64,000 nucleotides of DNA, taken from Isurus oxyrinchus (lineage: Eukaryota). This document shows, piece by piece, positions 20,720 through 63,680 of this stretch. Under the pieces are notes generated by a model, which worked only from the letters and a program-made list of their open reading frames with translations, did not search any database and was not told the origin of the DNA. Location: contig JANJGN010000015.1 of assembly GCA_026770705.1 (NCBI GenBank), forward strand, positions 118,978,001 through 119,042,000, read 5' to 3'. A program made the position numbers and the translations under genes. Each line of letters starts with the position of its first letter. The stretch's first letter is position 1.

Positions 20720-21709
20720 TTAGATGAAGTTTGTTAAACGATGAAATAACACTGTAATTACACATAATAATTCAGAAGGAGATTACAATCAGTGCCCTGT
20801 GAGCATCTTATATTCAACTGACCAAGGAACTGGCAGAAACTCCATTCAAACCAATACCCAATTGTTCTTATGCAGTTAATAAAACACACACACTAATAAA
20901 GTGTATTGTACCAGCACAGTTCCAGATTGTTGGCTTCATGCATGGATACAATGAGTAGGCAAAATAAGAGAGATTCATTTTAAACTAATTTCCATTGTGT
21001 GTGTGAACAATATTATTCAGGTTTACTTCACAGATTCATTGGACAAGACCATTGAAAATCATTCTTTAAAGTCATAATATCAGTAAATATTGCAAAAGAT
21101 CGGAGAAAAAAATTGTATTTTTTCAGCACCTTTCATTACCTCAGGATACCCTTTCCAGCTAATTATATACTTTTTAAAGTGTGGTCACTATTATAGGAAA
21201 TTTAATCACACATTCAAAGAAGCTTTCTGGTGGGAATAAAATTTCCTTTCAATTTATTTCTACTCCCATAGCATGTGACTTCTATAGTCTCTGGATGAGT
21301 GGGCAACTGGTACAGAAGCTTTTGTGAATAATTGCCACCTAGAAACTGACTATAGTACCAGGATATTCCATGGACTACCAATTTTTTTTGTATACTCCTA
21401 TTGGCATTCTAAGTTTTCCTACATATTAAGTAACAAATATCGGTATACTAAAATTAGACAAAGCAGTAAATTTTGTCTCTTGTATAATATCTGCTCATCA
21501 CCAGTGGATGGTGATAATTATTGCCAAAACATTTAACATTCTCATCAGGAAATCAATTCTGCTTCATGTACTTTAACTAAAATTATATTTAGATAAATTT
21601 TTAAGAAAGAAAAGAAAGGCCTTTCATCTACTAATATACTCCACTGCTATTACTGTCAGTGTAACACAGTTACTAAATTAATGGCCATACTAAAGTGGTA
21701 AGAAAGAGT

Positions 21710-21908
21710 TAAAAACAAAAAAACTGCAGATGCTGGAAATCCAAAACAAAAACAGAATTACCTGGAAAAACTCAGCAGGTCTGGCAGCATCGGCGGAGAA
21801 GAAATATGTTCTGTTGAAGGGACATGAGGACTTGAGACGTCAATTCTTTTCTTCTCCGCCAATGCTGCCAGACCTGCTGAGTTTTTCCAGGTAATTCTGT
21901 TTTTGCTT
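21710..21908. mobile_element. Short Penelope-derived fold-back insertion
   Basis: Forward and inverted copies of the PLE terminal repeat; TSD TGGTAAGAAAGA at 21696-21707 and 21909-21920; decayed hammerhead at 21808-21845. Confidence 0.88.
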
Positions 21909-23568
21909 TGGTAAGAAAGAATACTAGCACAACAGGAAGGCACAACAGAAAGTGAATCACTGGAGAGGATTCCATATCCAAGGAGTTACTCCCTTTGCTT
22001 GATGCGCCCAGGTAAAAATCATAGACATTTTAGCAGTTCAACCCGATGGACTACAGGTTAAATTAATTAGGAAATTTATGTGATACTAAGGTCAGTTTCT
22101 GCTTCTTCCATTTTTGGGTTCAATATCAGCATTACACTGCATGCCAGACCAGCATTCTTAGCCTGGCAAGAGTTCTGCGTGTTTTGTTTGCAGGCTCAGT
22201 TAATATTAAACAAAGGATTAGGCACTTCTCACGCAATACCTGCACCCAGTAACCAAACACAGATAAGCACAGGCATTCTGGGAAAATATGAACCAGTTCG
22301 GCCTGTGACACTTGATGCAGCCTTGATTAATATATATTGTGATGTTAACCACAATAAATCCCACCTAGAATCAAATACTATGAAAGGCAGATAACCGGAC
22401 AATGGAGAGACAGTAATGCCACAAATGGGGATTCTGTGTTTCTTGAGTCTCCCTTGTCTTTTGTCACTGGTTTGCTTAGTACTCTATCAACATAGGTCTT
22501 CTACTCCAAATGAGGGTGGAGTACAATCTCATCATGGTAAAACCAACAAATAAATCCATTAGGTTTAGCACAAGGAAGAATCAACTAGTTTCCTCTGAAC
22601 TGTTAATACAAAGGGACCTGCTTACACTTCAGTTTCCAGCGTGACAAAATATCTACACCTGAAACATTAACTATTTCTCTTATCCAACATTTTCTACTTC
22701 AGTGTCTACTGTACTCAGAGCACACTGCTGAACTGGGCAAGAAGTCTTAGTTTGGGTATAATAATTTAGTTTGATAGTGAATGAGACAAATCAATGCATT
22801 AGATTCAACTGAGTAACTAAGGTATCGTTATAATAACCCATTAGGTTACACAAACAAGATTAATTTAAGTCACCTGAATTGAAGAGCTTATGTTAAAATC
22901 CTAAAGTAGCCAAAAGATTTTGTGGTTTACTATTATATAAAATGATGTGAATTTAGGGAGAAATTATTTTTTGATTAGTTCACAGGTCTTTTTCAGCTTT
23001 GCGCAACCTAAGTAATCGTACATGAAATTTAATGGATGGTACGTCACCTTTTATCTAAAAAACAGGAAAACAATAAAGATTATACTGACAAATGTATTTC
23101 AATGATTCATTCTTCTTAACTCCACTCATAATCACACGATTCTGTCTGAGGTTTCTTTACTCTTCGTCCTATCGTTCCTGAAATACTAGATTTTGCTCTG
23201 TGGGTAGTGGTAGCCCTCCTGTACTTAACCCAACAGGTTATTCTCTAATTGTTGGTAGGCACCTAGCCGAAGAGGGAGAAAACCAATGTGGCACTGAGAT
23301 ATGCAGTATTTGCCGCATATTTGCACTTTCAGTTAAAAGTCCTGTCATCTCATTTTTCATCTATGAAATTACCGTTTCAGGTTTTGGTCAGGAGGGGATA
23401 GGTAGCTTGTTTTTTAGGCAGCAGTGAGGAAGTAGAAGCCAGAATGATGATTGGAAGGAGAACAGTTTGCATCTTTAGGCAGTCTAAGGAGAGGCACAAC
23501 AGCAAGCCTGGGACAATGAATAGGTTTTTCATAAAGGGAATGGCTGGGACTTCAAATACAAATACAAA

Positions 23569-24252
23569 GGGCTGAATTTTGCCACAGAGGGAGAGGCTGA
23601 TATGTGGTGGGGGGGAGTCCGTGGAAACTCAGATAATCTGTCCCGCTGCCGGATGAGTTTCCCAGGGGCAGGCTGCCATGGGAATCAGCAACCCGCTCAC
23701 GGAGGTGGGCAACAAAATAGGCCAATTAAAGCCCTACTTCAGGGCCAATTTCAGAGTAGGCCAGCATTGTTTCCATCATCAGGCCAGCACCTCACTAAGC
23801 AGCGACTTGGAGGAGGTCTCCCGGTAGCTGAACAGAGAGCTATCAGCGGCTCCTCTCATTGGCCCAATGAATAAGCCGCATGTACAAAAAGAGCACAGTC
23901 ACAGCCAAAATACAATCCGGTGGAGGACCCATCCCTCCACACTGATGATCCTAACAACTGTTGGCCACCTTTAATTTTAAAATGTTTAGCAACTTCCAAG
24001 AGCACCTCCATTTTGAGACGCCTTCACTTCTGCCTTCTGCCTCAGCAGTGCCCATCTCTCCTGACGCAGTGCTCTGGGTCCTCTGAATGAGCCTCCTGCC
24101 TCAGGAACTCACCTGCCATCCTTAATTGTATGGCGAACATCAAGGCGGCCAATTAGGAGCCTGCTTCTGGCAAAGTTGCTCGGGTGGGTGCCTTGACGTC
24201 AGACCTGAAAATGGTCCTGACGTTGGTTTCCTGACGCTCATGGGAAAATTCC
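23569..24252. mobile_element. GC-rich MITE, PIF/Harbinger-like
   Basis: Left TIR GGGCTGAATTTT, degraded right end GGGAAAATTCCC; internal GGCCAATTA motifs. Confidence 0.6.
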
Positions 24253-26452
24253 CAAGAGACCGCAGTTAATTTTAGGCTTAAAGTTTAATGTTGTGTTTAG
24301 AAATGTTAGTCTTGTCATCTCGGGGACTGATTGTGACCTCAGAAAAACGTTTCTTCCACTACTTGAAAAAACTTAAACAGGGAAATCACAGAATCATAGC
24401 ACAGAAGGAGGCCATCTGGCCCATCATGCCTCTCCCAGCTCTTTGAAACAATTGAATTAAAGTTACTCATCTGCTACTTTCTCATAGGTCTGCAATTTTC
24501 TCTCCTGCAAGAATTCAACATAATAGAATGGGTGTAAATTTTATTTGTCGCTTAATATCACAATTTTGAGATCATTAAAATATCCCATGCCAATTAGAGA
24601 TAGAGGCCACTCTTTACCTCCAAAGAAAAATTCAAAATTTGTACATGGTGAGGTAAAACAACTCTGGACTATTTAGTACTTCCGCTTGGTGGTTAGAAAG
24701 CTGCTCACTTTGTCTTTGCACCTCTGAATTTTCTGCCAAAACTTATTTGTCTTTTTCATTCTCTACCTGTCACCATAAAATAAACTGCCCTGAATTATGT
24801 CTTGGTTTCCCTTCCCCTCTCAAGGTTTCCTGCTTTGTATTGATTTTGCCCCTCTTAGTAAAGTGTTTCAAGTCGCTGGTTTGTATGAATAGTGCTATAT
24901 AAATACAAGCTATTGCGAATAGTTAATCTTTCACTTTTATGCAGATTATTAATGACATGCACAGAGAGCAGGACAAGTTAGCAAGGGCAAAAGTCTGGTG
25001 GTAAAGTTAGCATTCTTCATTATTCCTACGTATATAAAGGATTAAGATAAGAAAATGTCAACTATGGGATTTAAGCTCCTAAGGTCACAGTATTTCTGAT
25101 GAATTAGAGGATCAAGCTTTTTCACTTTGGCCACTTTGGCTTTCAAAGATAGCAAGGGACATCACAGGACAATTTGCACTCACTAACCCTGCAGTGTATA
25201 GTGCGATTTCATCTTATGAAGCCATTTTCAGGTTTTGTACTGTACAAAGTTCACAGCTAAATGGAAATTTAGAATGATTCAATGATGAATTGGGTCTCCA
25301 ATCTTCTGGTGGCAGATTTATTGTAAAAGAAAATAATAGCACTAAATTCTTCATTACCTGGTAATAAGCTGCACTTTATGGGCAATCATTTCAAATATTA
25401 GTCATCTTTACCTGTCTAAAGCCTCCTTTGTTCACCTTGGGACAACAATCCCTTGAACTGATTCAGCTAAGAATTAACCAGCTTCATGGCTGCATCAACC
25501 TATAAGCAATGCCACCCTGGATTTCAGCACATATTATCACTTCTCATTCTTTTCTGGTGTCTCATTATGTAATTCAAAGCAGGAAATAGTGATTAACAAT
25601 TCTTCAAAGTAATGTCTTTTCAATTACTTTTTTTTCAAAAAATTGTATGTTTTCAACACAGTTTTAATGTGATTACCTTCAAATATGTTGTGATAGGATG
25701 AATGACCACTAAATACTTGCAAATACATACTTTTAACCAGAGTATGTACACTTTCCCACTTCAGTTTCTGCTCTTATTAATCTCTTGGGGGTTACACAGA
25801 ATGCAGTGGCCTAGAATTTAGACAGTGTGCTCCAATGCCACCATTTGTCAGATCCTGTCTGGACACTGCTGTGCATCGAGACCCTAGGGAAGACTTCCCC
25901 ATCCAATTTTCAAAATTTGGCAGCATGGAGGTATTAAGCCTGTAGCCCACCAATATATATGTTCTAATACTTTCTCATGAGAAACTTATTTTTAATATTT
26001 GGTCAATTGCAAAGAACGTTAAACAATTTAAGCCACACGTTTTGGAATCCACAAAGAGGAAGAACTACATTCTACATACCAATAAGATCGCATGCAGGAA
26101 ATTTAATATGATTTTACTTGCCTGCAATTTCTGCATGGCAAGTTCTCAGTTTAAATTGATGCATGAAGTGAAGAGGGGACAGAATAATCAATAATCAGTG
26201 CAACCAAAAAAAAAGAGCGGGGGAAGTCAGTCAGGTATTAATTAGCCAATGCCAGTCTTCCACAACTTCTTGTGGCTGGTAAACAAGCAACAAGAGAGTT
26301 CTCTTGAGTAAGAAAGGACGGAGAAAAGATAGATGAGACTTGAAAAAGGGGGCAAAATATAAATAATGTATAGAATAAGTTTCTAAACATTTTTAAATAA
26401 AAATATAATAAGCATTTTTCTTTTCACATGAAATCTACTTACCACTACTTAC

Positions 26453-26508: not shown

Positions 26509-29500
26509 CAATTCCTCTCTGCGACTAACTAATAGGAGGTATGATTGTAATGGAAGGAACCTTCTAGGCCAGTCGCCCTTGCTATAGATTGTCAACGCCC
26601 CCAGAGCACATTCTACCATTGAGAGTGAGCCGACCAACAGCCTGTTGAAAACTGGGAGCATTCATTCCCAGAGAGTTTTGAGTTGACAAGAAGTACTAGA
26701 AAATGATTACCTTTTCCATATTCCAACCTCTGATACTGCTTCAAGGTTTGAAGTATAACAATAAAAATGAAAAGGAACATAGTTTTTAAAGCTACATTTG
26801 CAAAACATGCATGCAGAAAAGCAAATGCAATACTTTGTGTTAATTTACAAATGTAGTTCAAAACATTTCATTTAAATTCTGACACATCTGTCTTTGGGAA
26901 CTGCTTGTCTACAACACACTTAATTACTGTACACAGTGTGACTTCTGGCACAAAGTATTCAGTGTTTCAGCAGGTCAGTAAGTTGAGCCTGCATTCAAGG
27001 AATCTTGTCACTAACAGTGCTAAACTGTATCCAGTGGCTGTTGATTGTGGAGCACTCTTTAAACATCGTTACCAGACAGTGTTAGAACCTAGCAGTGCAA
27101 TCCAGCACTGTCTAGTAAGATGCCCACAGAGGACCATGATCCGACCCGAACTAGGGGAAAGCATTTTAGTTCCTGTAATTGGAAGGAAACATTGCAATTT
27201 TCAATCCAGTGCTAACTACATACCCAAACCATGACAACCAAATTTGAAATTCTGGAGGATGACCGAATAGGACCAAGATAGACAACTTACATAATATATA
27301 CATTGAGCTTCTTTGTTATCATGCTGTTTCTTTGCATTTTTATGTGTTTTTACTAAAATGTACCTCTGAACAACCTATGCTCATTTAAAATAACATATTT
27401 ACCTCCTATAATTTGCAAACAATAGCTACTTCATCATTTTAACACAGATAATTCCCATAGTGAAATTACTATTGAATTTATTAAAACAAAGCTTTCCCAA
27501 TGGGTCAATGTTATCTTGAGCTATACATACCAGGGGGGGCCTTAGATTCCATTCCTGTGTTGTGATCCTGACTTGGGCAATAGGAAAGGTATTATAACTG
27601 ATCTTAATGTCTTTGGACCATGCAGTGCAAACAATTGGTATAGTTTTGAACTCTAGATGGTACAATATAGAGATGTTAGATAGCTGAGAGTTTCCACACA
27701 GCCAAACATCCTACCTATAGTCACAGGCATAAAAAATGATCTCTTCAGCAAGTGACAGCAGTGCAAAGGGTGTTTTTAAGAGGTGGAGGAATGACAGGGG
27801 TGGAGGGAGGTGGTGGGGGAAGAAACAAGAAGAAAATATTAAATGCACAGCTCTTAACTGTTCAAAAAGACTTCAAACCTCTCTCTGATGGTTGACTTAT
27901 TTAAACTTCTGGCAGCTTCTGACCAGAATAGAAATAACTATTATAGTTAGAACTCAGGCTTTAGAACTTCAGAAGTTTTTTCAAGTGGCTGACTAGATGT
28001 GTACCAATCAACAGCATGCTGCAGCTATAATCTCTTCACCAGCCCATCTAATGTCAAATCTTTAGTATTACACCACGATGGCAAACTAGTGGGCATGATT
28101 TACAGGTTACTTATGGCCTTTAGCAGATTAGATGGATTTATTTCCTAAACACCTTGAAAGTTTTGGTGTTTTGCAACTTTTCTGTTCCCTTTATGGTACA
28201 AAAGGTAAAATATATTTCATAAAATAGAAACTGCATTACAAACCAGCAAAACAGTAGCCCTCTGTAGCATCATTTACAATTGTTACGATCCAGTTGATTA
28301 CTGTTCACAGAATCTGCATTTTAAGTTTAACATTACAGACCAACAGTAAATAGTACTCAAAATATAGCATTATTCTTGGAGCCAGTTGCACCTTTTCAAG
28401 TTTATAGCACAAAATTTCTAATCTAGACAAGTTGATTCTAATAACCATATCCGAAGATTTTACCTGCACTCCTATAAAGTAGTTAACAAAGAGTAGTCAT
28501 TGTCTGTTCAATATTTGGGCATTATATCTCTCTACAGTCTACTCTTTTTAATTCTGATTTATCTGCAAACTCAATTTTTTTTTCAAATATGTACCAAAGT
28601 CCCATCTTTCCATGTTATTTGCAGTCCTTAATTCAAAAGACTGAATAATTCAAATTTCTTAGCAAAAACAGAACTTTTGTATTGGTGTGTGTTTGTGTGT
28701 CAGAGTGACAGCGAACACAAAAGAACACAATCAAAAACAAGTCATATATAGCAACTAGATTTTGTATGGAATGCAAGAAGTGTGGTCTCTGTTCAACGAC
28801 TTTGCCTTCTTGTGTTCGAATGTGTGATCTTACATCAACCATTGTGAAATCATGATTTGTGGCGCCACTTTTAGAGGTACTCATTCTTTCCTAACCGTTC
28901 ACAAATACAACTCCTAATTTGTCTGCTCTTTCTCCTAGTTTTCTAAAATCCAATTTTGGTGGCATTCAACCACTACTCCTTGATTCCTCTCATCATCATT
29001 GGCCCTTCACCTCAGTCTTTCTGGGATATACAATAGCTTACTTTCTTAGCTCCTTTAATTATACCTGTTCAAATGCATCTTAAAGATTACACTTTAAGCA
29101 TTCCTAATAACTCCATTTTATCTCTTTTTGCTGCTATAAATTTAAAGCTAACAGTCTGAATCTAAATCATAATCACCACAAAGATCATAGGATGGTCCAC
29201 GTCAATAACAAATCAAAAATGGATTTTACAAATTCAAAATACTGGAGGATGACAGAAGATGAGAATGCTGAAAAGTGTTAAAACTACATACAACTCTTTT
29301 CCTCTTTCTACTGTAATATAACAAAGTGAATCATCCAATTGATTTAGTTCTGGTGGCACACAAAAGCTAGTTTTCTGGTGCTATGGTACTGTACCAGAAA
29401 TTGGTACCAGGATGCAGGCACAGTTATGTGATTAAGTGTTCTCTGGGGGTGAACTCACTAATGCATATGCCACCTTATATGTCAAACTATTCCCACCATT

Positions 29501-32500
29501 TTCTCCTCCTATTGATTTGGAGGTGCTTCTTGTCAACAAATCCATCACTTACAAGGCCACTAACTGCAATTCTGGCAAATAGGATACCAAGAAAATGCTG
29601 CTAAAAATGAATGCATATTATGAAGGGGATAGAAAGACATGAAACAAAGATACAGCTTTAGTGTCCCTCATTAAAAAAAAGACTATCACAAGAAGAATGA
29701 AGTGAAGAATGAGGGTTAAATGATCATTGTTCCCATCATACAAAGCCAGCTCCTAGGTTGCTCTGTAAATATCCTGTACTGCACAAGCCTGTAAGCCAGA
29801 GATTTCCATTCTTCTGTTTGCATTGAATTCTTCTCCGATGAAATCAGAAAGCCATCATCATCATTACCAGGCAGTATTAGAATACCAGTTACATCCAATG
29901 CTGCCCAGTAAGATGACAATACCTCCCCAAAAATCTTTCATTGTCGTTTTCCCAGCAGTCATTGACACAGGTAATCCGTAGTAACTCATCAGTAAGTAAA
30001 AATACATCTTGCTGATTACCTTCCATTTCTATCCAAGTCCACTGTCAAATTACATTCTATCCCATGCCACCTAACATGCATAAAATTATCTTGTTTCAAT
30101 TAAGCAAATTTAAAATTACTTCCAATTTGAAAACATTAAGTTATAATTCTGAATTTCATTATTGTCCTATTTTGAATAGCTTGAAGAGGTTTTTAAAGCT
30201 GATATTACCAATTTAAATTGATAATATACAATTCTGGTAGACAATACATTCTTTAGAAATAAACTTTACTACAATACCTCCCCCTTTCCATTGGTTATCA
30301 CAAAATAAGTAAAAATCTATTTAGCAGCCTTATTAATTAAGGCAAAATTATCTATTATAATTGATGGCCTGCAGCCTTCTGTCTACGATGTGAAAACTGT
30401 ATCTCAAACTAATTTATACGACAAGTTTTGACTTTCTAAGAAGCTGCATATGAATCATGTAGGCAGATATTTATATTATGTAAAGAAGTGACATCACTAG
30501 CTTTCTGTTCAAAATGAAAGCAACTCACGAAAGGCGAGAACAAAACCTGGAATGAAATATAATACTATCTGCTTCCACCCACTGAAAACCTACAAAGCCA
30601 TTTTTGTCACAAGCTTTTTTTTAAAAACTTGAAACGTAAAGAAAACCTGACTTCCCCTGCTATCTACATTTCTAGGGTCATGCTAAGACCATGAGCTAAT
30701 ACCACCATTTTGTATATTGCAGCTATGTGTGGAAAAGCAAAATGGCCTCCAGTGTCCTGAATACGACAATACTAATGAGTACCTTTCAAACTACAACACC
30801 ATAACCAGTCACGAATTGGAAGCATTACTGGTTCTGACTTGCACAACCTCCAGCAATAAAACATTTAACATTAAATTTGATTTTAAGGGTTTTTGTAGAA
30901 GACAACATGCAAACAATCAACTAATTCTTCAAGAATTGCAATTATTTACTTTTAATCTTTCAGTCTCAGAGAAAGATCTATTCTGTTTACAAATCCTGGC
31001 AGGCTAGCCATGCTTTTATAACATTTTTTGTATTTTTAATATTGCGGGTTTTTTTGTTTTATTTTATTGTAATAATTGCTATTTGTTGTCTTAGTGTGTC
31101 CAAACAAAATCGTATTTTATCAAAAAATTAATAATTCAAAACTGCTCTAATCCTTTGGGAGAGGCTTTTTTTTGAGTGTCACAAAGACCAATTTTATTAA
31201 TTTACAAGCCATGTATCATTACTTTGACAACATTTCTCAAATTCAGAAGAAAAATAGCAATGACAACCATGATCTGAAAGTAAATAAAATGCTTTCAATT
31301 CAGATTACAAAAATGTACAATTTTTCCTGAAAGATAACTAAAGGTTCTATCTAGTTTAACTGCAGCTTTTAATTCACTTCTATCTGTCATATGAAATAAA
31401 CATTGGAAAAATGAAATAATCTAAAAAAATACATTCTGGTCATTTACATTGTGAGTGTACATAATAACGCTCATTATTCTGACTAACCTGTAACTCTCAA
31501 GTTTTATATTAAAAATGGCATGCAAATGTATTCGCTGCTTAGACACATACTTGTCTCAACATTTTTTTTTATCTGATCACCCTAAGAGATAATGCTCATG
31601 TTAATAAAATTGTACTAGGGGAATGGCTAAAATTACCTGTTTAATTGTAATACCTAGCAATCAATACAAGCAAACAGACTTCAATATATTATCACTAGGC
31701 TAACCTGAAACATAAGGTGCACAAACAGAGACACATTACCTTGAAATGTCACAACCAGAAAAAGGTGGCTCATTATGCTCAAAAGTGAATTTGGAACTGA
31801 ATTCATCAGATTCTTTTTTTAAAAAATAAAACTAGTCTCAACAGTTGGAATACATGCCTTGTGGGCATATTTTGTAAATGTAACCTGAACTGCTGTTTTT
31901 TTTAATATATAATTAAGTTTGTGTTGAATTGTGAAAACATCCCATTTATTTTTTCTATAAGAAATATTAATTTCCATGATTAAAATAGAATATTAATTTG
32001 AAATTAAAAAGTCCTAATTACTGCCACACTGCCAATATTAAACTTTTGCAACTAACATAAGAATTACAAGAAAAGTTCAAATTTAATACAGAATAGATAA
32101 AATACACACACACATGCAATTGCTTTAAACTAAATTAAGAACTAATAAACAGGTTAAGTTTATACTGCCTGATCCCTTATTTATCCAGTCTCTACTAGCT
32201 GATCTAATATTTGTGATCACAACAGCTTACAGTTAAAGGCCAGACTTTGGCAATGTTTTGTTCAGTAAAGGGGAAAGTAAAGTACAGTAAGTAGCGAACA
32301 TGGCTGTAATCCAAAGCCTTCAAAGCAAGGTTATCTTTGCATTAAATATTACATGGATATAAATTACTGTATACTCTTCACAATTACTGTACCAATTTTC
32401 TTCAAAGATGTGCACAAAAATAAATTACCTTGGAAACAAGAGGTATTTATCCTCTGTTCCATAAAAAAGGAAATTACAGCAATTCTATTACTGCGTGATT

Positions 32501-37600: not shown

Positions 37601-40388
37601 AATTTTAGAAATTCCAGACTCTTTGCCTACATTACCAGAAAAACATGAAAATAGGCAGGGGAAATTTAGAGTAGTTTGTACAATGGATATTAAAATTTAA
37701 TACAATATTTTTAATTCTTTAAAAAATTGTACAGATAAAGGTTCTCACTCAAATACTAAAAAATCCAAAAGGTTTGATAAACAGAAAAAGAAAGGAGTTT
37801 TTAAAAATAAACTTTTAGTTCAAGATAGCACAAGTTAAGGACGTTTATAATTGTAGCTGTCAGGATAACTCCAGAATGTCTTAGGTGATACCAATAGCAT
37901 GTATGATACATCAAATTCCAAATGCTAAAAAATAATTTTTAGATTGGTTAAACAGAGTTTTTTTTGATTCATACGATGGTGTATTTAACACTGCATATTT
38001 AAAAAATAATTAACAAGCATGTAAATGACACACACGAGCACAATGCAAACACATTGGTCACTGAAGAATTTATAAATTATTGAATTTTCAGTTCCTTATA
38101 TTCTACATACTATAAATCAATAGTTTTCTCTCTTCCCTTTTTCTAAAAGTCTATTATTTAAGATTGTGAAGAAGTTCGTAAATTCTCTACAAACACCATA
38201 ATTTTGCGCTTTCTATAATCTTTTATAATGATGAGTTCAGACAACTCAAATGAAACAGAAACACTAGGAAATTTGATCTTTTATTTAAGTGAGTTAACTT
38301 ACATTATTACATCACAAATACTATGCCTAGAACTGCATTTGTTTGCAGATTAGGGCTTGGCCACTTTGCATTCCCTGCTGCAAAATGGCTGCTACAGTGT
38401 CTTCAAACTTTAATTTACCTGAAACTGTACTTAACCCATATTAACATTGCTTTTTGCTGCATAAACCATGCTGGAGCTTCTATATGAAAGTCAAGTTGAT
38501 CTAATAGAACACTATAACTAAACAGGCACATAAATTAGCACACAGGTAAAACAAAGGTGCGTTCCCTTGAAATAAACGGGTTCTAATCTCACTAGCAAAA
38601 GGTTCAGCCGCCGAATACAAAAGATGCTGAGAGGCTAAGTGCACAGCAGTTAGCGAAGTTCAATGTATGGCGCACCAAAGCAATTTCTGAAGTATACCTT
38701 TATCAACCATTTTATTACTGCACAGTTAACTGCCAGTGCTTTATATTTTAAAATAAATATTTATTTGGGCAATTATTGCAGATGAAAGGCCCTACAATGA
38801 TTATAGTTTATGAATAATTTATTTTCACATTAGCAGAGATGCAACTTTTATGGTAATTAATGCACAAAATGAGTTGTTTTCGGCACGTGGTATGTTTCTA
38901 GTTAGCAGCAAAAGTGTGGATCAACAGAATATTAACTTGCTACCCATACGCTAATGATGCAAAGAAAAAAAGGCTCATGTGCCACACGTATTTTCCATAA
39001 TTGACAGCAGGTGCTTAACTAGACTTGTTTTGTTCCATGCTGCATGATTATGAAAAAGATTAAGGAGATCACAAAGAATAATTGGAGTTTGACAATGTTT
39101 TCCCGTCTCTTTTGATCATGTCCTTGCCGGTATACAGTTAAGCTGCCAATCATCTTCTGCAACAGAGTGGCCATTATGCATGTATGATCCTTGGCACCAT
39201 GTTGGCAGGCTGTTCAATTATTGGAGATGGACATCACAACCAAACTGAATCTGTCCTTGCCCAACATCCACTGATACACATTTCCAGAAGGGGGCACTGG
39301 GAGCAAACATGAGCAGAAGCCCTGACTTTTTTCTCCCACCTTATTCAGGTGCAACAACGCCCATTTTTGGAATTCCCCAATCTACAACCATGCCACCTGC
39401 CCGAGCTGAGTTCAACTAACTCAGCAGAAATTGGACATGCTCTTGGTCTGTATGGTCTTGCAAAATTCCGTAGAAATTTTCTCAGATTGGTTGGTTTGGG
39501 AAGCACTTTCACAGGCAAAATTGAAAAGAAGTTAAAGAAAGTTCTGATGAAAGGCCATTGACCTTTAGTGTTAACTTTGTTTCTCTCTCCACAGTTGCTA
39601 ACTTCAATGACGCATACTAAAAATTTGAAGTGGAGAGCTAAGATAGTACATGCTAGGGAGCAGTGGTATGTTATTGTTACAGAAAGCATAACTACATTTT
39701 ATACATGTTGCAGATAATATAAGATCTAAACTAAGGTCACATGCACATGTCTAAAGCTTCAACTGCATTGATGTCATTAAAAAGATACTAACGTACTTTA
39801 AATAAAGAACCAGTTATGCATTGTAATATGATGTAGATTGAAGCAACAGGCTGGCATAGAGCCTGCCACATTTGAGGTCTTTGTTCCTTATGCATTGCTC
39901 TGTTCTACATTTGCCTGCAAGAGAGAAAAATGGTTTGCCTCACAATTGCACTGATATAAGGAACATCAACCTGAAAAATGAAAACACTTAGTGGTAAAGA
40001 GATCAAAATGGGTAATCACATTTGGCCACCTTTGCTAACTTGATGACTTATATTAATATGTGATCAGTGCAGTAATTTGAAGAGTTAGCAGGAAAAAAAC
40101 ATGCCGTTAGAATCTATTTAATCTATTTTTTACTTTTACCTGAGGGAGGGAGGAGATTGGCATAAGATATTATAAAAAAAACTTAAGCTGGAAAAATATA
40201 AAACTGTATTTACAGTGTGGGTCCAATTTCTCTTGTTAAGAAATGCAATTGATTACCATGCTGCAGACTCTAGAATATCTGCCCGTTATCTTTAGATGGT
40301 TAGATCTCAGCAGCACAATGGGCTGCCAAAAAGTAGGCAATGCAAGTTCAATTCCAAAGTCTGCCCTTAGACAACATCCATTATACCA

Positions 40389-40659
40389 AAACAAAAATAC
40401 CCGGAAAAACTCAGCAGGTCTGGCAGGATCTTCAGAGAGGAACACAGTTAACATTCCGAGTCTGTATGACTCTTCAACAGAACTAAGTAAAAATAGAAGA
40501 GAGGTGAAATATAAACTGGTTTAAGGGAGGGTGGGACAAGTAGAGCTGGATAGAGGCCAAGTCATAGGTGGAGATAGCCAAAAGATGCCATAGACAAAAG
40601 GACAAAGAGATGTTGAAGGTGGTGATATTATCTAAGGAATGTGCTAATTAAGGGTAGAA
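40389..40659 (-). mobile_element. Short Penelope-derived insertion
   Basis: PLE terminal repeat; TSD ATCCATTA(T/C)ACCA at 40376-40388 and 40660-40672; hammerhead motif at 40447-40483 (minus). Confidence 0.88.
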
Positions 40660-41394
40660 ATCCATTACACCACATTTGCATGACACCTGGTGGAAGGCCA
40701 AGACCAAACAGTGGCAGTGGTCATAAAGAGGTAATTTTTCATATCCTCCATGGCCAGAGGCTAGGGAAAGAGTGTGTAGAATAGTTTCGCTACAAAATGC
40801 TTAATCTCTGGATCATAGGTTTGGGAATAATGAGATATTGTCTAGCCATCTCCCTTTTTTAAAAAATAAACTTGCAACTGCATACCATTTCTGTTTTTAT
40901 TCAAATTATTTAGAACAGATTCAGTGATGCCAAAAGCTTGAAGAGAATTTTGTTCTTGCCCACTGAGGATCTTCTGTCTTCCACACTGAACTAGAATCCA
41001 GCAGAGCATCTGTGGAAAAGGGCACATTAAGCAAGGCTCAGCAAGGTTTGTAAGCTGCGGCTTTGGTGATATCAATTTGCAACACCTTAACAAAAATAGT
41101 AAAGAATAGTAGTAAGGCATATAACTACATCTTAAGATAACTAGATTGTTACTTGCCCAATTTTCATCTGTGACTTTTTCGCTGCCATATGTGCATTGCA
41201 AATAACACACATGAAAAAGGTCACAATACAAGAGGAAAATGAACTTGTGATATGTTGTAAGCAATGCAATTTAAATGTTTAAACTGCTAAACAGAAACGT
41301 GCAGCCTTTGTGTAAGCCTGCCGCTTGTGAAGGTGACTTTCCTTAGATATGATTCCAGTCACTATCGCTTTATTTCTGAATCTACTAGGTGAGC

Positions 41395-44619: not shown

Positions 44620-46590
44620 CTGCAAGATTATGGCAATCCCATTCACACTCTGTACTGAGCAGAATAATTCCTATAGTTGCCCAATGAAGAAAAGTAATGC
44701 TCTCAATCAACATGACCACTAGTACGCAGGCCCTTCCTCCTGTCCCCCAGTCCCAGAAACCACAACCAAACACTCTGACCCACATTCCTCTCAGCTTAAC
44801 AGTAGTTATAAAAAGTTACTTCAATGCATCGATTAACTCACTCAACTAACACTATGAAATTAAAATATACAATGGCTTCGTAGGTTATGCAAAAGAACAC
44901 TTGGATGTACAATGGCTACATAAAATATATGTGAATGTACTTTTTGAGAATTTAAGAAAAAAGTAAACATAAGTTTCAGGATACTTTACCAATTTAAGTA
45001 ACAAAGACAGTTTATCACAATGTGTCCTACATAGATGAAAATGATATTAAGTTCACAGATAACACAATAAAGCACTGTATTATCTGTATTTAATACTTAC
45101 ACTTCAAATGAACTTTGGCTCATGATTTTTTTTAATCCTAGGTTGTGTCTCATTCACTGTAGAATGTACCACATAGCATGCAAAACACTTGGGTCTAGAG
45201 TTCTTTGTAGTTATCAGAAACTCAAAAGACTTTTGCTGATAGGTTTTCTCATTTATGATAATGATCCCAATTTTAAACTGCTCATTGTGTAATTCCAGTC
45301 AATGCACTGAGGTATCTCAAGAATCCAACCACCACTGAGTGACAAAATGTGGCTTATATGCTGCACGTTTGAGAAAAACTGTCTTTTCAAACAGTTTTTA
45401 TCTTTAATTTTCTATTTCACAACCTCACATCAGTTTACATACTGTTGATGTATGCTTGCAAGTATTTGCATGAGCATGCGTGGATATAATGATAGTTGTA
45501 CAAATTATTATTGCAGTGCTACAAAATTCAAAAAAGGGGTAACAAAGCTAAGGCATGGTACAGTAGTTTAGTTTTTCTTCTATTTTGTTGAACACCAGTT
45601 AAATTGTAAGCGTGCTTTCACTGAAAGTGATGCTGCAATTCTGGACTGGCTGCTCTTGCTCTGATTTTTATTGCAACATAGATTCAGAGCAAGAGTAGAC
45701 ACAAGTGCCAATGGATGGCGAGTGAAAAAGTTGAATTGTGACACGAGTTGTGCCTTAAGTTGAGTGCACAATGCTCAATAGCTGAAATTTCCAATATTAG
45801 GGGAAGGCTAATAAAAGTCAGCAAAGTAGAACCTCCGTTGCTCACTTGTACAGCTTCCAATGTTGTAATGTAAGTAAGGTACACATATGAAAGCATACAC
45901 TTTCCACTAAAGCAATCACATTGAAGTGCATTTTAAGTTCCAAACTTAACTACTGTTGCACTCAATCCAACCGGAATGCCATAAAACATTAGATAAACTG
46001 TCAAACTTCTGTTTGAAACAATTAATTAAAATCTATGCTGCATTTCAGACCACTTTTATTTTCAGTCTATTTTAACCCTTTATGTTCAAACAATGTATGT
46101 CAAAGACTTCAGCAGAAAAACTGGCTGTAAGGAATACAGCAGAAATGGTAAATATTACAAAAAAACTTCTTCATCACAGATCACCAATAAAGGGTCAGCA
46201 TTCATACCTAACATACGATACAACAGATAAATACAGGTTAGCCAAAAAGTTACGCAACTATTTTGAGCCACTTATGTTAAAAAATACTGCTGGTTAATTC
46301 CCTTAATGATTTACAAACATACTGCAAGAACAGTATTGAAATAGTTAAGGATGAAAGCCTTCACAGTCGACTCAATGCTAAGCATGCCCGAGCAATCAGC
46401 AAAGCAAACAAAATGTTGAACTACATAGCCAAAAGCAGCAGAATAAAAGTCAATTCTGGTCAGATCACACCTTGAGTACTCCATCCAATTCTAAAAACAA
46501 AGAAAACTGCGGATGCTGGAAATCCAAAACAAAAACAGAATTACCTGGAAAAACTCAGCAGGTCTGGCAGCATCGGCGGAGAAGAAAAGA

Positions 46591-46627
46591 GTTGACGTTT
46601 CGAGTCCTCATGACCCTTCGACAGAAC
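46591..46627 (-). ncRNA. Minimal hammerhead ribozyme motif (mirror copy)
   Basis: Exact reverse complement of the motif at 46629-46665. Confidence 0.75.
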
Positions 46628-46666
46628 AGTTCTGTCGAAGGGTCATGAGGACTCGAAACGTCAACT
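46628..46666 (+). ncRNA. Minimal hammerhead ribozyme motif (variant core)
   Basis: AGTT-CTGTCGA-A-GGGTC-ATGAG-GACTC-GAAA-CG-TC^AACT: stem I AGUU/AACU, stem II GGGUC/GACUC, palindromic ACGU stem III, GUC triplet. Confidence 0.75.
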
Positions 46667-47169
46667 CTTTTCTTCTCCACCGATGCTGCCAGACCTGCTG
46701 AGTTTTTCCATCCAATTCTAGTTGCTGAGACAAAAAGAATTATTCACATACTGGGGAGAGTATGGTGAAGAACCACTGGGCTTATACTAACCTAAGTACG
46801 AGACATTCTTGATGTACGGTGGAATTCTTAATAAAGGTTAACTAACAACAGTAAGTGATTGTGTGTGTGTATTGTGAAATAATGTTCAGTTGAGTAGGAG
46901 GAAATGATATGGCCAATAAGTACTCTACTCTAACAGGATTTAGATAAGACTGTATTAGAAAGCATAGGAAATTGTGGGGTGAGTGGGGTTACTGGATCAT
47001 AACTTTGGCACCACAAGTTGCTAGTGGAACTCTCCATTGCTGGCTTCAATAGCATGCTCACAAGGTTATAGCCAAAATAGAAAAGCAAAAATATTTGGAT
47101 GTTTATATATGGGCTGCAATAAAGGTTGTGTTTTGAATCACAAGCATAGGTCTTAATTACAGCCATGGC

Positions 47170-50624: not shown

Positions 50625-51396
50625 AGTCCATGCCCCTGCCCCTGCCCCACCAGTTTGAATGCCTCGAGGGCCCACAGAGAGGCCAGCAGTGGGAGTTATG
50701 GAAATGCCATTTTCTCCAGTACCTAGCAGCATCAGGCTTTTATGAAAAGGAGCCAAAGCTTCAAGTTAGTTCTTTTCTTTATGCAGTAGAACCAGTAGCA
50801 GACAACGTTCTCGAAAGGCAGGGGGTGCAGGGGTTCACTGCGGACTTTAAGTCCATTCTTAAGGCTTTTGACACCTAACTTAGCCTGAAGCAAAATTTAG
50901 TAATTGAATGAGCACACTTTAACCAGCACTCACAATGATCTGGGGAATTGACTGAATTATTCCTAACCGACCTATGTTGGCTAGCTATTCTTGTGGATAC
51001 GGGGCACTGAAAGAGGAGCTAATTCGTGATCGCATTGTCATGTATGTCTGGGATAAAAAACTCTCCGGCTTTCTGCAAACAAAAGATGTTCTTACTTTGG
51101 ATCAAGCCTTCCAGTATGCAAGGCAAGCCAAGCTTAGAGCATTCAATCGAGCTATAATTAGGGCCAACTCAGAGGCTTCACATGTCTCCGCAGATTGGGT
51201 AGGCATACCGGCAGTGGCCTCACCCATACAAAAGCCCACCAAACCGAGTGAAAAGGTGAGCAACTTCATGCCAATGGCCATTTTGAGAAGCTTGCGCTGT
51301 GGTACGAAAACCCAGCATAGGACCCAAGATTGCACAGCAGTGGGCACAGAATGCTTCCAGCATGGCAGAACTGGATATTTCAAGCATTTCTACTAA
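50625..51396 (+). pseudogene. gag: Gypsy/Ty3 LTR retrotransposon gag, decayed
   Basis: WELWKCHFLQYLAASG...QVSSFLYAV, CGYGALKEELIRDRIV...LTLDQAFQYARQ, and degenerate tandem zinc knuckles RCG....H....C.A.G.EC..(H)GRTGYF; stops/frameshifts between ORFs 50630 and 50974. Confidence 0.88.
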
Positions 51397-54296: not shown

Positions 54297-54520
54297 CTAA
54301 AGCAAATTACTGCAAATGCTGGAAATCAGAAATAAAAACAAAAAATGCTGGAAATACTTAGCAGATCAGGCAGCATCTGTGGAGAGAAACACAGTTAACA
54401 TTTCAGGTCGATGACCTTTCATCAGAACATTATATATTATAAAATGTTACTGTCTAATTTGTTAATTCGTCTTTCATTGACCTGCTGTGCATTTCTAGCA
54501 TTTTCCATTTTTTATTGTTT
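54297..54520. mobile_element. Short Penelope-derived insertion with degraded inverted arm
   Basis: AAATGCTGGAAATACTTAGCAG...GCAGCATCTGTGGAGAG forward, GACCTGCTGTGCATTTCTAGCATTTT inverted; TSD not clear. Confidence 0.75.
54394..54428 (-). ncRNA. Minimal hammerhead ribozyme motif with canonical CUGAUGA/GAAA core
   Basis: Minus strand GTT-CTGATGA-A-AGGTC-ATC-GACCT-GAAA-TG-TT^AAC; perfect 5-bp stem II. Confidence 0.75.
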
Positions 54521-55399
54521 TCTTCAATTTACTGGTACTTCTCTTCCAAAAATGCCAGAAGTTCTGTTCCTTTCTTTCCAAAGGGTTTCATTTACCTCAT
54601 TCACCTTCTTGCTAAATGTTAAACTATTTTTTTCTCTCTACAAACGTTGCTGTGTTTCTCCAACATTTTCTGTTTTTCTTTCATAATTCTACTAGACATT
54701 TGTTTGGAACTAAGAGTTATTCAATCGCATGTCAGTTATACTCATTGATGGAATAAATGTAAACCATATATTGAGAATTATGCTGAAAAGTGCACAACAA
54801 TTAAGTGCTTGACAAACAAACTAAAAAATTCTATGGAGCAACAGCAAAATGGGAGAGGTGATTTGGCAAGCAGAGGAGGTGAAATATGGGTCCAGAGTCT
54901 GTACGAGGACAGGGATGAATCCTACCTCTCTGCTGGGTTTCTTGTTATGTCAGCATGACTCAGGAGGCATAATACAGACAATTCATATGGCAAACTAGAA
55001 ATGGGTTTTGAGGGTAAATCAGACCTTCATTTGCCATTATTAACATTAAATAACTTATATACATTGTGTTTGTTGAACACCAATCTTATTGCATCATTAA
55101 CAGAAAATAGTTAAACCTTTTAGCAGGTAGGGAGGCAACAATGTCAACAGGGTAATTTTAAATAGAACCTGAAAGCTTTAGATCTACCACCCTTCTGGTA
55201 AAAGGTCAAAATCAATTCAATGCTTTGTAGCAGACCGTATGATCTAATGAGTTAAATAGACTCATGGTACTTTAAAAGCACCATTGTTGATTGACAAGTT
55301 AGCCTGAGCCATGAATGAAATGTTGAAGGAAAGACCTAGCATTTGGCTTATTGATTTCTTGTTGGTTGCAGATAAGCCAATGCGATACTGCAGGGTAGT

Positions 55400-57040: not shown

Positions 57041-57360
57041 TATCAAACTCCAGACAAGGGACTTTGCTTTGCAGTCCTTTGGTCAAAAACGTAACATCCC
57101 TGACTGATATTCTAAAAAGTGATGATGGAGCAGTATCCACTTCACAGAGAACATTAGATTATTAGATCACCATCAAAGACAAAATAACTAATTGCTCAAC
57201 TTTCTCTGCCATCCTCACAAATAAGCATAAGATGTATGTATGTATCAGTTTGAAATAGAATATGCGCTGTGACATTCTACAAACTGGCACATCTGGCTTT
57301 AATACACAACTTTAATGAACCTGTCAGCCTTTTGCTTAAAACCAGTGTAAACCTAAGTGC

Positions 57361-57516
57361 GAAGCAAAATACTGTGGATGCTGGAAATTTGAAACAAAAA
57401 CAGGAAATGCTGCAAAAACTCAGCAGGTCCATATGCCTCAAAACGTTAATTCTTTTTTTTCTCTCCACAGATGCTGTTAGACCTGCTGAGTTTTTCTAGC
57501 GTTTTCTGTTTTTGTT
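57361..57516. mobile_element. Short Penelope-derived fold-back insertion
   Basis: Inverted terminal-repeat arms; perfect 15-bp TSD TGTAAACCTAAGTGC at 57346-57360 and 57517-57531; hammerhead core largely deleted. Confidence 0.9.
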
Positions 57517-57599
57517 TGTAAACCTAAGTGCAATTCCCCAAATCCTTCCAGTACAGAAAAAAAATCAAGTATAGTGGTGATGATGAATTAAATTTGCTG

Positions 57600-59736: not shown

Positions 59737-59738
<2 letters not shown>

Positions 59739-61110
59739 CATTGCTTGCTCAGTAAAGCAAATACTGTGCATCATAGCCACTTTTAAAAAAAACTATTCTT
59801 CAGGTTCTCTCTTTTTTTAGGTTATTTATTTTTATTTAAAAATTATTCTATTAAAATACAATATCCAGAATAAAAGAAATTATACTTCAAAAGGATCTAC
59901 GTTTTGAGTTAGTTTCACAATGTAATTTCAATACAGTGTTGGAACTGTTCAATAACTGAACAGTTCAGCTTTCACAGACGCTTAGAAAATCAACAGGAGT
60001 TTGAAAAAAAATTGAATTGTTAACAAAGCAACACACCCACTAACTGATTTTAAACTTGTCACACCTATGTACGCAACATTCAACTTTGATCCAAAGCAGT
60101 GCAGATTTCAACATCTGTCATTCCATAGTCTGGAGTCAGTTACCTCAGGCTGTTTCCTAATTATATGATTTGAGGTACAGAAACTCAGATCTGCTGACAT
60201 TCACAAATACGTTAACAGAAAAATGTGAAATAGGTGTGTTTGTAATATGATCCTTAGCGTGAGATAAGCAGCGCCCACTGCCAGTTTTAAGCCACGAAAA
60301 CAATACAATACACATACAGTTAAATCCCTGCACAACTAGTTTGTCAAGAACTGTGATCGGAATGGGATTTTTGTAGCAGCATATAAAAATAGTCAATTAG
60401 CATATACATGCGCTGTTTAAAACTATAATGCTTCAGCTAGCCAACAATGTACAAATAGAAACTAAAAAGGTTCCTACTTATTTCCTGCACTGTTGTGATC
60501 CAAGTATGCACATTAGACTGGGTTAATTTTAGGAATGTGCAGTTGGTATACTCGCACTGGTCACCTTCACACTATGTCCTAAAAACTGTGGCTCTGCAAT
60601 TGGCAGGAATCCAAAGGGTGAAGGGTTGCAGATGTATAGAACCACATGCTCTTTAATTTAACTATTGAAATGCCAGAAAAAATAAATATTTTAATGTCTG
60701 GTACATCACAACATGGCCCTTTCGGAGTTCAGAAAATGAAGCATGAATTCGCTAGTCCAAGGGTCAAAGTTTTCCTAGTAGAAATTCAGTTCCTGCATTC
60801 CAAAGTTATTTTTGTCTGTTCTTTAAGAATAACTGTTAAGGTAACTAAAACTTTAAAGTCCCTTTGGTTCATATATGCAATGCCGAATACTGCTATCAGC
60901 GCAACACAGTTCTACAGTACTAGTAATAGCTTCTGCTTGGGTCTAGTAATTCCCTAGGAGATAAAGTATTTTTAAAAATACCTCACCAATATAAGTTACC
61001 ACCTTTTTAAAGTAAAGTATTGTGTTTCTGGCCTCTACCTAAAGGTTCTTTAGATTTTGGAACATATACATTGTCTGTGCAAATGGATGAACCCAGAAGT
61101 GTTCACTCCC

Positions 61111-61325
61111 TGGCCCTCTATCCAGCTCTACCCGGCCCCCACCCCCCTAAACCAGCTTATATTTCACCTCTTTTCTATTTTTACTTAGTTCTGTTGAAGG
61201 GTCATTCGGATTTGAAACATTAACTGTGCTCCTCTCCGCAGATGCTGCTCGACCTGCTGAGTTTTTCCAGGTATTTTTGTTTTTGTTTTGGATTTCCAGC
61301 ATCTGCAGTTTTTTGCTTTTATCTT
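61111..61325 (+). mobile_element. Short Penelope-derived insertion
   Basis: Perfect 13-bp TSD AGTGTTCACTCCC at 61098-61110 and 61326-61338; hammerhead motif at 61187-61225; same subfamily as 40389. Confidence 0.9.
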
Positions 61326-61469
61326 AGTGTTCACTCCCACCCATATATAAAAGGAAAGTGGTAACTTGGCTAGAATTCTTGCAGAAATCTGGTACTCAGT
61401 GAATTACTTTCCATTTACCACTCAGGAATTTTTCTTCTCCACAAATCCTTCCCTAGTAAGGAACAGAAA

Positions 61470-61815
61470 AAGCCCTCAAGCCTGTTCCAACATTCAATTA
61501 GAGCATGCTGTTGTGTACCTTAACTCCATTTACCCATCTTGATTCTTAACAAAAATCTGAGTCAGTTTTTAAATTCTCAATTGATCTGGCTTCAACAGCT
61601 TTTTGGGAACAAGTTTAGAGATTTCCACTATCCTTTGTGTGAAGTGCTTTCTGACGCGAGTCATAAACAGCCTAGCTCTGATTTTAAGATTATGCCTTGT
61701 CCTGGGCTCTCACACCAGAAGTAATAAGGTACAGAGAGTGAAACTGTCAAATCCTTTAATCATGTCAATTAGATCACCCCTTAGCCTTTTATACTCAAAG
61801 GAATACAAATCTAGT
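61470..61815 (-). mobile_element. CR1 3' fragment
   Basis: Reverse-strand CR1 3' motifs (TCAATTAGATCACCCCTTAGCCTTTTATACTC). Confidence 0.65.
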
Positions 61816-63109
61816 TAGCCAGCATAGCACTCGAATCTGAAAATGCTGTAACTTTCCTTCTTACAATCTAATGCTATCCAAGGTGCCTTAGTGACCTGCC
61901 ATTCCATGGTTTTTAATGCTGGTACACCAACATTCTGTGTTATTGGTTATTTCTTTATGAATGACTAACATATATAAAAATACCACTGCAACCTGAGCAC
62001 AAAAATTAAGGGGTGATTTAATCAAGGTCCTTAAGATGATTAAAAGAAGTTAACAGGTAATCTAGAAAGAAACTATTTCCTCTGATGGGAAAGTCTAGGA
62101 AAAGGTACTACATAAATTGAGAGAATTAGCATTCTTAATGAAAGGACTAACTTTAAATACTGGTCTTCCCTAATATTCATATCTAGGCTTCTCCCCCAGA
62201 GGTCAATGCTTTGCCAGTACTCAATTGGATTGTTTAGAGAAGTGATGGATGCCAGACCTGGAAATGTAGCTCTTTGCTGTCTGCGTAAACGTGTCTCTGG
62301 TATCTCAAATTGGTTGAACACTGGATTCAGGGCCAGAAAATCCAGGGTTTGAATCCCAGCAGGTTTTACTTGCTACATTCAGTGGCAAGTAACTAAGCAC
62401 TGTATTTTAAGATACATAAGAGCCTACACACTGTACTGCTACAGTATCTGTCTTGCTGAGAATCATCTACCGTCAGTAGACATTTATGTCAAAAGGAGAT
62501 AACTTCTATGCGGTACTGTGTCTCTCAAGAGACAACTGAAAGGCAGCACTAATATTGTCTGTAAAAATGCTCATGGACAGAACCATTTCACCCTACTGAC
62601 CAAGGAAAATAGTGAATGAGGAAAGAAAACAAACAAAAAGGCAAGCTAAATAAGTGCAGAACAAACGATACTTGAACAGTGAAGTATCATACCTTATTAG
62701 TTCCTGCTCAAATACCTACCACACTTTTTACTGTAGGATTTGCTGCTGGTTTTCTAAACTACATACACAATTAAAATGATAATTACTTTTCCCAAAACAG
62801 TATTGGACATACTTCTACTTTATTTTTCCAGATACTATGTGCCATTTCAAATATACGTTCATGAAATTTATTTCTTAAAGATTATCAAGGGAGTGTTCTA
62901 ATGATTTTTGGAATTACAATGACTTTTTTGTTGGTATGTTGTGAACTTGATGGAAGAGGGTCAAAGCTATAATATCTTTAATAGACTACTTGTTTTAGAA
63001 TGACTTTAGATAACATTACAGAGGTCAACTACACTTTTATGGGTCAGAGACAAACTGATTTATAAGTCAGTTTTATATTTAAGGATCTTTAAAAAGGATT
63101 GCTTTGAGT

Positions 63110-63680
63110 GTCAGAAACGGCTCAGTTGGTAGCACTCTCACCCATGAGGCACACGATTCTGGATTCAAGGCCCACTCCAGGGCTTGAGCACAATAATAAA
63201 GGCTGACACTCCAGTGCAGTATTGAGAGAGTGTTGCACTGTCAGAGGCACCATCTTTCAGATGAAACGTTAATCTGAGGTCCTGTTTGTTTGCTTGGGTG
63301 GACCCAAAAGATTCCATGCACTATTTTGAAGATCAGCGTGGGAGTTATCTCCATTGTCCTGGCAATATTTATCCCTCAATCAACAACACAAAAACTGATA
63401 AAAGAAAAATACTGTGGATGCTGGAAATTTGAAACAAAAACAGAAAATGCTGGAATAACTTAGCAGGTCTGACAGCATCTGTGGAGAGAGAAACAGAGTT
63501 AATGTTTCGAGTCCTTATGACTCTTCTTCACAGCTGATTACAACAACTGATTGTTATTGGTCATTGTCACATTGCTGTTTGTAGTAGTTTGCTACATGTA
63601 CATTGGCTGCCACATTTTTTATGTTACAACAGCCAGTGGTCATGAAAAACTTTACATAAATGCAAGTCTTTCCTTTTTTT
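63110..63680 (+). mobile_element. tRNA-headed SINE interrupted by a PLE mini-insertion
   Basis: A box GGCTCAGTTGG, B-box-like GGATTCAAGGCC, body and tail ATAAATGCAAGTCTTTC. Confidence 0.8.
63400..63539 (-). mobile_element. Short Penelope-derived insertion
   Basis: TSD ACAA(A/C)AACTGAT at 63388-63399 and 63540-63551; decayed hammerhead motif at ~63497-63534. Confidence 0.8.

Follow-up and report, generated by a model that had tools for sequence, protein, structure and literature searches.

Do the short, hammerhead-bearing insertions scattered along a 64-kb stretch of the Isurus oxyrinchus genome form a mobile family of their own, or are they the broken ends of a larger element? The stretch in question (hereafter the window) spans 64,000 nucleotides of contig JANJGN010000015.1 (assembly GCA_026770705.1, positions 118,978,001 to 119,042,000). 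A preliminary description had assigned the insertions to the terminal repeat of a Penelope-like element (PLE) and had proposed that they behave as a non-autonomous family resembling retrozymes or short interspersed elements (SINEs). The reading favored here, to which a probability of about 0.72 is given, is that they are dead-end products of autonomous, endonuclease-bearing (EN+) PLEs of at least two lineages, probably of the Neptune clade, and not a separate family.

Pieces of a Penelope-like element

That the insertions are 3′-end pieces (pseudo-long terminal repeats, pLTRs) of a GIY-YIG PLE is largely confirmed. The proposed PLE origin is borne out by the longest copy (1526..2217, minus strand, lineage B), in which a GIY-YIG remnant is contiguous with the same 3′ end as that of the short insertions. 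This copy comprises a broken GIY-YIG C-terminus at 1907-2217, interrupted by frameshifts and stops and with weak similarity that may extend to 2265, about 280 bp of 3′ untranslated region (UTR), a decayed hammerhead from 1623 in which four core bases are deleted, and a tail-less 3′ end. The location of the remnant on the minus strand sets the orientation of the element, and the “A-rich end” described previously is therefore the reverse complement of the T-rich 3′ end of the element.

A full HMMER search with the remnant, X standing at stops, matched 13 proteins (best E 2.4e-8), one of which (P0003) proved to be a spurious repeat protein and was removed. Pfam GIY-YIG was found at E <0.01 in six of the 12 matching proteins scanned, one exceeding the curated cut-off, and tblastn maps the matching proteins onto 1910-2227 (best E 1e-14). 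The remnant alone gave no match in Pfam or PDB, none among seven candidates in a word-based protein search and no significant direct BLASTP alignment with the full-length relative P0015, and it is linked to the full-length relatives because intermediate matches connect them. A profile search returned 970 relatives. Among the 120 kept, which have reverse transcriptase (RT) and endonuclease, 29 match the remnant and 101 have the DKG motif, and a Cys linker occurs in all 112 relatives with the endonuclease motif, as well as in the three nearest long matches. Such a linker is the hallmark of Neptune and Nematis (PMC8557442). The remnant itself breaks off before the Cys linker region; because of this, the clade is read from the relatives, which suggest that the source element was probably Neptune-type. 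Three of the proteins (P0002, P0004, and P0014) display a PLE GIY-YIG end fused to unrelated domains (LINE [long interspersed element] RT, DUF4518, and a GPCR [G-protein-coupled receptor]) and are probably artefacts of gene models or else PLE ends that became exonised. Neither an RT remnant of the element nor a full-length copy was found in the window. Exact-pattern scans elsewhere yielded nine loci in metagenomes and 22 in prokaryotes, all attributable to chance (longest alignment 38 bp), and no further copy in viral contigs.

BLAST and alignment within the window recovered all seven short insertions listed previously together with the longest copy, and added a ninth copy whose 3′ part is deleted (39540-39599) and, on the plus strand, two faint pieces in a more decayed state (54474-54516 and about 54610-54689, together 54474..54689). 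The nine insertions, 60 to 745 bp long, total 2133 bp, and their density of one per 7.1 kb (9 in 64 kb) is higher than the one per 9 kb first estimated. Nor do they all consist almost only of a terminal repeat of one fixed length, as had been stated: the single copies at 40389-40659 (271 bp) and 61111-61325 (215 bp), both of lineage A2, hold 176 and 77 bp of 3′ UTR, respectively, upstream of the hammerhead. The former (40376..40672 with its target-site duplications, or TSDs; minus strand) is tail-less, with helix I beginning at 40483. The latter (61098..61338 with TSDs; plus strand) is tailed, its hammerhead lying at 61188-61224, the position of the tail-less end at ~61289 and the tail end at ~61324. 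The additional copy at 39540..39599 (plus strand) begins one base ahead of helix I and retains a canonical CUGAUGA, the GAAA box and the 3′ part being gone. The other single copies are both tailed and on the minus strand: one, at 54297..54428, has its 5′ end at helix I and is the only copy in which CUGAUGA and GAAA are both intact, and the other, of lineage B, runs from 63400 to about 63535 (63388..63551 with its marginal TSD), its 5′ end lying at most 4 nt from helix I.

All nine insertions were tested for TSDs against a null of 300 random pairs, in which the longest exact repeat was 9 bp and in which repeats with one mismatch reached at least 12 bp in five pairs and at least 13 bp in two. 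Exact TSDs of 12, 14, 15, and 13 bp were found at 21696/21909, 46480/46707, 57346/57517, and 61098/61326, respectively, and a 13-bp TSD with one mismatch at 40376/40660. No TSD above background was found for the 1527, 39541, and 54297 copies. The six readable TSDs of 12-15 bp reported earlier thus stand as regards the four exact duplications and the mismatched one, whereas the sixth, at 63388/63540 (12 bp, one mismatch, 9-bp gap to the element), is only marginal. Their length of 12-15 bp differs from the 8-10 bp of rotifer PLEs (PMC3846280).

Three of the nine insertions are clear head-to-head fold-backs. The first, of the young lineage A1 (21696..21920), is bounded by its exact TSD at 21696-21707 and 21909-21920. 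Its left arm (21708-21804, minus strand) is tailed, starts about 40 nt into the unit and is without hammerhead core, its right arm (21808-21908, plus strand) is tail-less and starts at helix I, and the arms are 97% identical over 64 bp. The second, also of lineage A1 (46480..46720; TSD at 46480-46493 and 46707-46720), is near-perfect (99% over 82 bp): the 5′ ends of both arms lie at helix I and are joined by one base at 46628, the left arm (46494-46627) being tailed and the right arm (46629-46706) stopping about 20 nt before the tail-less end with a 4-nt microhomology with the TSD. The third, of lineage B (57346..57531; 89% over 37 bp), has a tailed left arm without hammerhead (57361-57432) and a tail-less right arm (57437-57516) whose 5′ end lies within helix II. 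A fourth fold-back had been described; those three stand, but the fourth, made of the 54297 copy and the oppositely oriented faint pieces to its right, is unestablished, as its arms match at just 77-80% over 35 bp and no clear TSD surrounds it.

Such structures are familiar. Published PLE insertions show 5′ truncation, a neighboring inverted copy and, at one end, a tail of 30-40 bp (PMC8557442), rotifers are reported to have solo pLTRs as well as inverted ones flanked by 8-10-bp TSDs (PMC3846280), and most PLE insertions are described as 5′-truncated and retaining a single terminal repeat (bioRxiv 2026.07.22.740005). The copies of the window share with EN+ PLE insertion units (PMC8557442, PMC3846280, PMC8969392) the 5′ truncation, the head-to-head inversion, the tail on one arm (35 nt here), the TSD and the C-terminal GIY-YIG, and differ from those described there in that the insert is often only one or two pLTR ends.

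Two 3′ ends and a cluster of 5′ ends

Among 12 arms, six are tailed, four are tail-less and end ~35 nt earlier, one is ~20 nt shorter still and one is deleted, and in all three clear fold-backs the tail is confined to one arm. The insertions had been said to keep the same A-rich end or a truncation of it: the end is indeed shared, but exists in two distinct versions that differ by a 35-nt tail, and not as a smear. The 35-nt segment is the known 30-40-bp PLE tail. Public contigs of two species (organisms A and B) were aligned on the 61111 copy at 82% likeness, and 68,474 contigs of organism A and 45,030 of organism B were placed, two of each extending over the unique ends. Flank-diverse loose ends occur at 61289 in 328 and 343 contigs and at 61324 in 363 and 330 contigs (organisms A and B, respectively). 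Contig counts and summed depth are not equivalent to copy numbers and were not used for ranking parts of the element, and the very high genome-wide abundance suggested earlier holds as an order of magnitude. One of the contig runs (X1) may itself have supplied the window. Two sets of presumed RNA contigs from organism B (1222 and 139 contigs) were uninformative on starts, splicing, cleavage, and circles.

At three tail-less or shorter 3′ ends (21908, 40389, and 46706), the next letters of the element equal the first 2-4 letters of the TSD, a microhomology hinting at base-pair-assisted priming. Lineage B has two further pyrimidine tracts followed by AG downstream of the hammerhead (unit regions 61237-61245 and 61290-61297, clearest at 63400 and 54297), the second of which coincides with the tail-less 3′ end; lineage A1 is without AG in both motifs.

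In the Poseidon element of the anole, RT is reported to start internally at two sites that bound the tail, the target is cut and extended on both strands, the hammerhead need not cleave, and the RNA must continue 3′ of the start sites (PMC11167929). The copies described here are similar in having two 3′ ends bounding the tail and no ends at the cleavage site. They differ in that the open reading frame of Anolis Poseidon starts in helix II, where no open frame starts in these copies (PMC11167929), and in that their relatives carry the Neptune-type Cys linker. Insertion would then probably proceed as follows. A GIY-YIG/RT protein would nick both target strands 12-15 bp apart, a spacing recorded by the TSDs, the enzyme itself being suggested by the remnant and by PLE biochemistry. 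RT would initiate inside the pLTR at either of two sites 35 nt apart, and give rise to the tailed and tail-less 3′ ends observed, a cause proposed by analogy with Poseidon. Both nicks would often prime, one per site, and the resulting complementary DNAs (cDNAs) would be joined head to head, dual priming presumably accounting for fold-backs with one tailed arm. Most cDNAs would end early, at variable positions, and a subset would reach exactly as far as the opening base of hammerhead helix I. The inserted short copies, devoid of the downstream RNA, would be dead on arrival.

Counted from the base with which helix I opens, the 5′ ends lie at about −594, −176, −77, −1, 0, 0, and 0, within 4 nt (63400), and at about +23, +40, and +63 (n = 11, the 46494 arms being counted once and the faint pieces excluded). 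Four of these ends fall within 3 nt of helix I and five within 9 nt (P from 6e-4 to 0.05 depending on the null, corrected for the choice of counting interval), and the copies of this cluster occur in both lineages. The cluster is probably real, yet a minority class over a broad spread. A purely continuous length distribution, named earlier as the outcome that would speak against a family, is not cleanly seen either: the ends spread widely, but with an endpoint cluster at helix I. No report of PLE 5′ ends at helix I or of this insertion family was found, Repbase, Dfam and supplements lying outside the search, and such clustering was not encountered in the accessible text of the papers on EN+ PLE insertion units cited above. 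Hammerhead cleavage does not create the template end, because no copy begins at the cleavage site (0 of 11 ends, the nearest about 6 nt downstream).

How the cluster arises can be accounted for in several ways. Tentatively, with odds slightly below even, the ends at helix I would mark where RT ran off a defined 5′ terminus of the RNA, having initiated in the 5′-proximal pLTR of the element's own transcript, which would start at, or be processed to, the first base of helix I. Plain 5′ truncation would instead invoke an RT stop, microhomology between the complementary helix strands or small numbers, with no RNA end involved. It fits the spread of the ends over 650 nt, the contigs of both species, which are plentiful upstream of helix I and do not drop off at it (a record of presence only), and a P of about 0.02-0.05 under the most generous null. 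However, both arms of the 46494 fold-back end at the same base and three more insertions end within 1-4 nt. Moreover, an RT should pause where it runs into the 3′ side of a helix and not once the helix is behind it. This explanation is held to be unlikely.

A pyrimidine tract followed by AG lies directly before helix I in all three long copies. The boundary fits a splice acceptor, as at helix I in D. virilis, as well as an initiator-like motif, two readings that the data presented here cannot separate. If it were a 3′ splice site, the cluster copies would derive from a spliced RNA whose first exon was very short or, in a variant, from an antisense template by self-priming. In D. virilis, the Penelope intron terminates where helix I begins on its 5′ side (PMC4209133), antisense self-priming has already been proposed for head-to-head PLE repeats (PMC3846280), and AT in place of the genomic letters precedes both 21808 and 54428. 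On the other hand, the letters ahead of the G vary among cluster copies, even inside lineage A1, exon 1 of D. virilis measures 46 nt (PMC2377424) against 0-3 extra letters here, and no joint at the helix-I boundary was seen among the listed rows of the contig pile-up, which leaves splicing quite improbable.

The hammerhead and the case for a separate family

The hammerhead-like motif noted earlier is present: a relaxed descriptor finds six motifs in 128 kb (both strands), all six inside copies. Rfam returned no hammerhead family in the window. Helices I and II are paired in 93% of 71 cells and three of eight pairs have changed on both sides, 5 of 500 shuffles reaching an equally high pairing and slid controls reaching 19-51%. 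The structure was drawn from the same sequences, and related sequences can pass the shuffle control; the covariation would accordingly be counted as support for a hammerhead, short of proof. None of nine arms combines CUGANGA, GAAA and the palindromic 15.2-16.2: five carry U6, and the arm with both boxes has no palindrome. The CG of the palindrome is retained in four of the nine arms and replaced by TG or CA in five, the pattern expected from CpG decay. Cofolding of three copies did not predict the active dimer fold. Core position 6 of the hammerhead is normally invariant; in lineage A it is U in all five arms having a core. The youngest copies are included, and the change was therefore carried by an active element.

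The motif resembles the minimal PLE hammerheads (PMC4209133) in being of type I, with no helix III, a short helix I, an unpaired base preceding helix II and a palindromic 15.2-16.2, and in occurring mostly solo or as opposite-strand pairs, thousands per genome, which have been attributed to truncated PLEs. The text of PMC4209133 appears to name only a U3-A8 variant, whereas lineage A here has U6 (five of nine arms). No paper on an A6U PLE hammerhead was found, the supplements with hammerhead family alignments lying outside the search, and one literature match (PMC11662667) was discarded as a twister paper.

In non-LTR retrozymes, with which the insertions had been compared, the units are arrayed head to tail and each has its own hammerhead (PMC7229834; bioRxiv 2026.07.22.740005). 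Retrozymes and insertions alike are non-coding and pLTR-related, with a type I hammerhead, long TSDs and an occurrence in a cartilaginous fish. Retrozymes form tandems and circular RNA, whereas the copies of the window are solo or inverted with at most one hammerhead per transcript, the two motifs of a fold-back being oppositely oriented. None of the nine rows returned by the tandem-repeat program TRF in the window overlaps any copy. A true non-autonomous family would consist of a unit of 100-140 nt that spans helix I through the tail and is transcribed on its own and mobilized in trans, perhaps in lineage A1 only. The endpoint cluster at helix I is in keeping with this, as are the A1 copies, which are young (arms 97-99% alike) and short, and of which no long copy lies in the window. 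In addition, pLTR-derived non-autonomous elements have been proposed for vertebrates (bioRxiv 2026.07.22.740005) and for Chlamys (PMC8557442).

The claim of a retrozyme- or SINE-like family is nevertheless not supported. Besides the absence of tandem units, no sense-strand pair of A and B boxes of RNA polymerase III was found on any arm. In four of the nine insertions, relaxed pairs do occur on the antisense strand, where what resembles a B box is the hammerhead core in reverse complement; an antisense promoter was rejected as a loose pattern and by-product of that core. The insertions are not a clade of fixed length: they measure 60-745 bp, their 5′ ends are scattered between about +63 and −594, half of the arms end elsewhere than in the cluster, and the 3′ UTR upstream of the hammerhead is covered in bulk by contigs of both species. 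In a tree of 10 arms, lineage A (support 0.89) joins cluster copies to 40389 and 61111, which are long copies, whereas other cluster copies stand outside it near the 1527 copy, so that the cluster is not monophyletic. A single short family is unlikely because cluster copies fall within and outside lineage A. Lineage A1 (21710 and 46494; support 0.96) could be the sole remaining candidate for a short family of its own. In the anole element, the protein is reported to need RNA past the RT start sites (PMC11167929), which, by analogy, an inserted short copy would lack. A separate family appears, on balance, very doubtful.

Several points weigh against the derivation of the insertions from autonomous PLEs as set out above. 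A full-length RT plus GIY-YIG partner with exactly the same terminus, for which a search had been recommended, was not found in a search that was not genome-wide, and the best full-length relatives are distant. The biochemistry is taken from Poseidon, another PLE. Support in the tree outside lineage A is weak (0.35-0.44), and there is the lack, in the window, of a long A1 copy. Only 11 ends stand behind the cluster statistic. The helix-I position is absent among the loose-end places listed (six per run) in the contig pile-up, and the cluster is for this reason not confirmed genome-wide. An exact start at 61188 with foreign letters ahead was seen in just 3 of 32 listed pieces, one of which is a helix-I-to-tail unit within a 1759-nt contig.

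Neighboring features and significance

The fold-backs resemble microRNA hairpins and should be masked. The one at 46588-46668 scores in Rfam as plant microRNA families, below the gathering score, and is a likely source of false microRNA calls. Rfam matches of the copies to MIR1033, MIR7696, psbJ, and 23S-methyl were likewise below the gathering score and were dismissed as reflecting the hairpins. Rfam also identified three miR-200-family hairpins on the minus strand (29854-29920, 27059-27127, and 20481-20549). The 21710 fold-back, with its 64-bp near-perfect stem, sits between two of them, its hammerhead being on the opposite strand, and because of this location it probably lies within a primary microRNA transcript. 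A U2 small nuclear RNA copy at 2855-3028 (minus strand, damaged 5′ stem, 99 bits in Rfam) is probably a retrocopy; together with the miR-200-family hairpins it marks the window as vertebrate DNA. Two more long palindromes (9385-9464 and 14850-14936) are unrelated to the PLE end. The repeat families D11 (47183, 58717, and 63142) and D2 (47971, 58747, and 63177) have a B-box-like head and are probably a tRNA-derived SINE. Decayed fragments of LINE-type RT lie at 4755-5058 and 10379-10581. A 146-aa frame at 50956-51396 may be a Gypsy gag remnant.

The insertions exist and are numerous, and for the most part they are unremarkable, namely truncated or inverted ends of a Neptune-like PLE; modest leads come from the endpoint cluster and from the U6 lineage. 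As a class they are known: abundant PLEs in a shark genome are already in print (bioRxiv 443036), as are the solo minimal hammerheads of truncated PLEs, and the value of the present copies is mechanistic. A bolder proposal, possible although somewhat unlikely, is that the 5′ end of the PLE transcript is fixed at the first base of helix I, so that internal initiation in the 5′ pLTR and run-off would mass-produce discrete 100-140-bp inserts headed by the hammerhead and, via dual-strand priming, perfect hairpins. Fossils of the PLE start site and of dual priming would then be preserved in large number in the genome, and lineage A1 would, at the far end, be a self-propagating short element. If this is true, a lineage that continued to transpose with U6 would show either that the element can do without cleavage or that U6 is tolerated by the core. 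The origin of inverted PLE ends and the role of the hammerhead, both still debated, can be addressed by counting ends in a genome that has tens of thousands of young, TSD-bounded copies.

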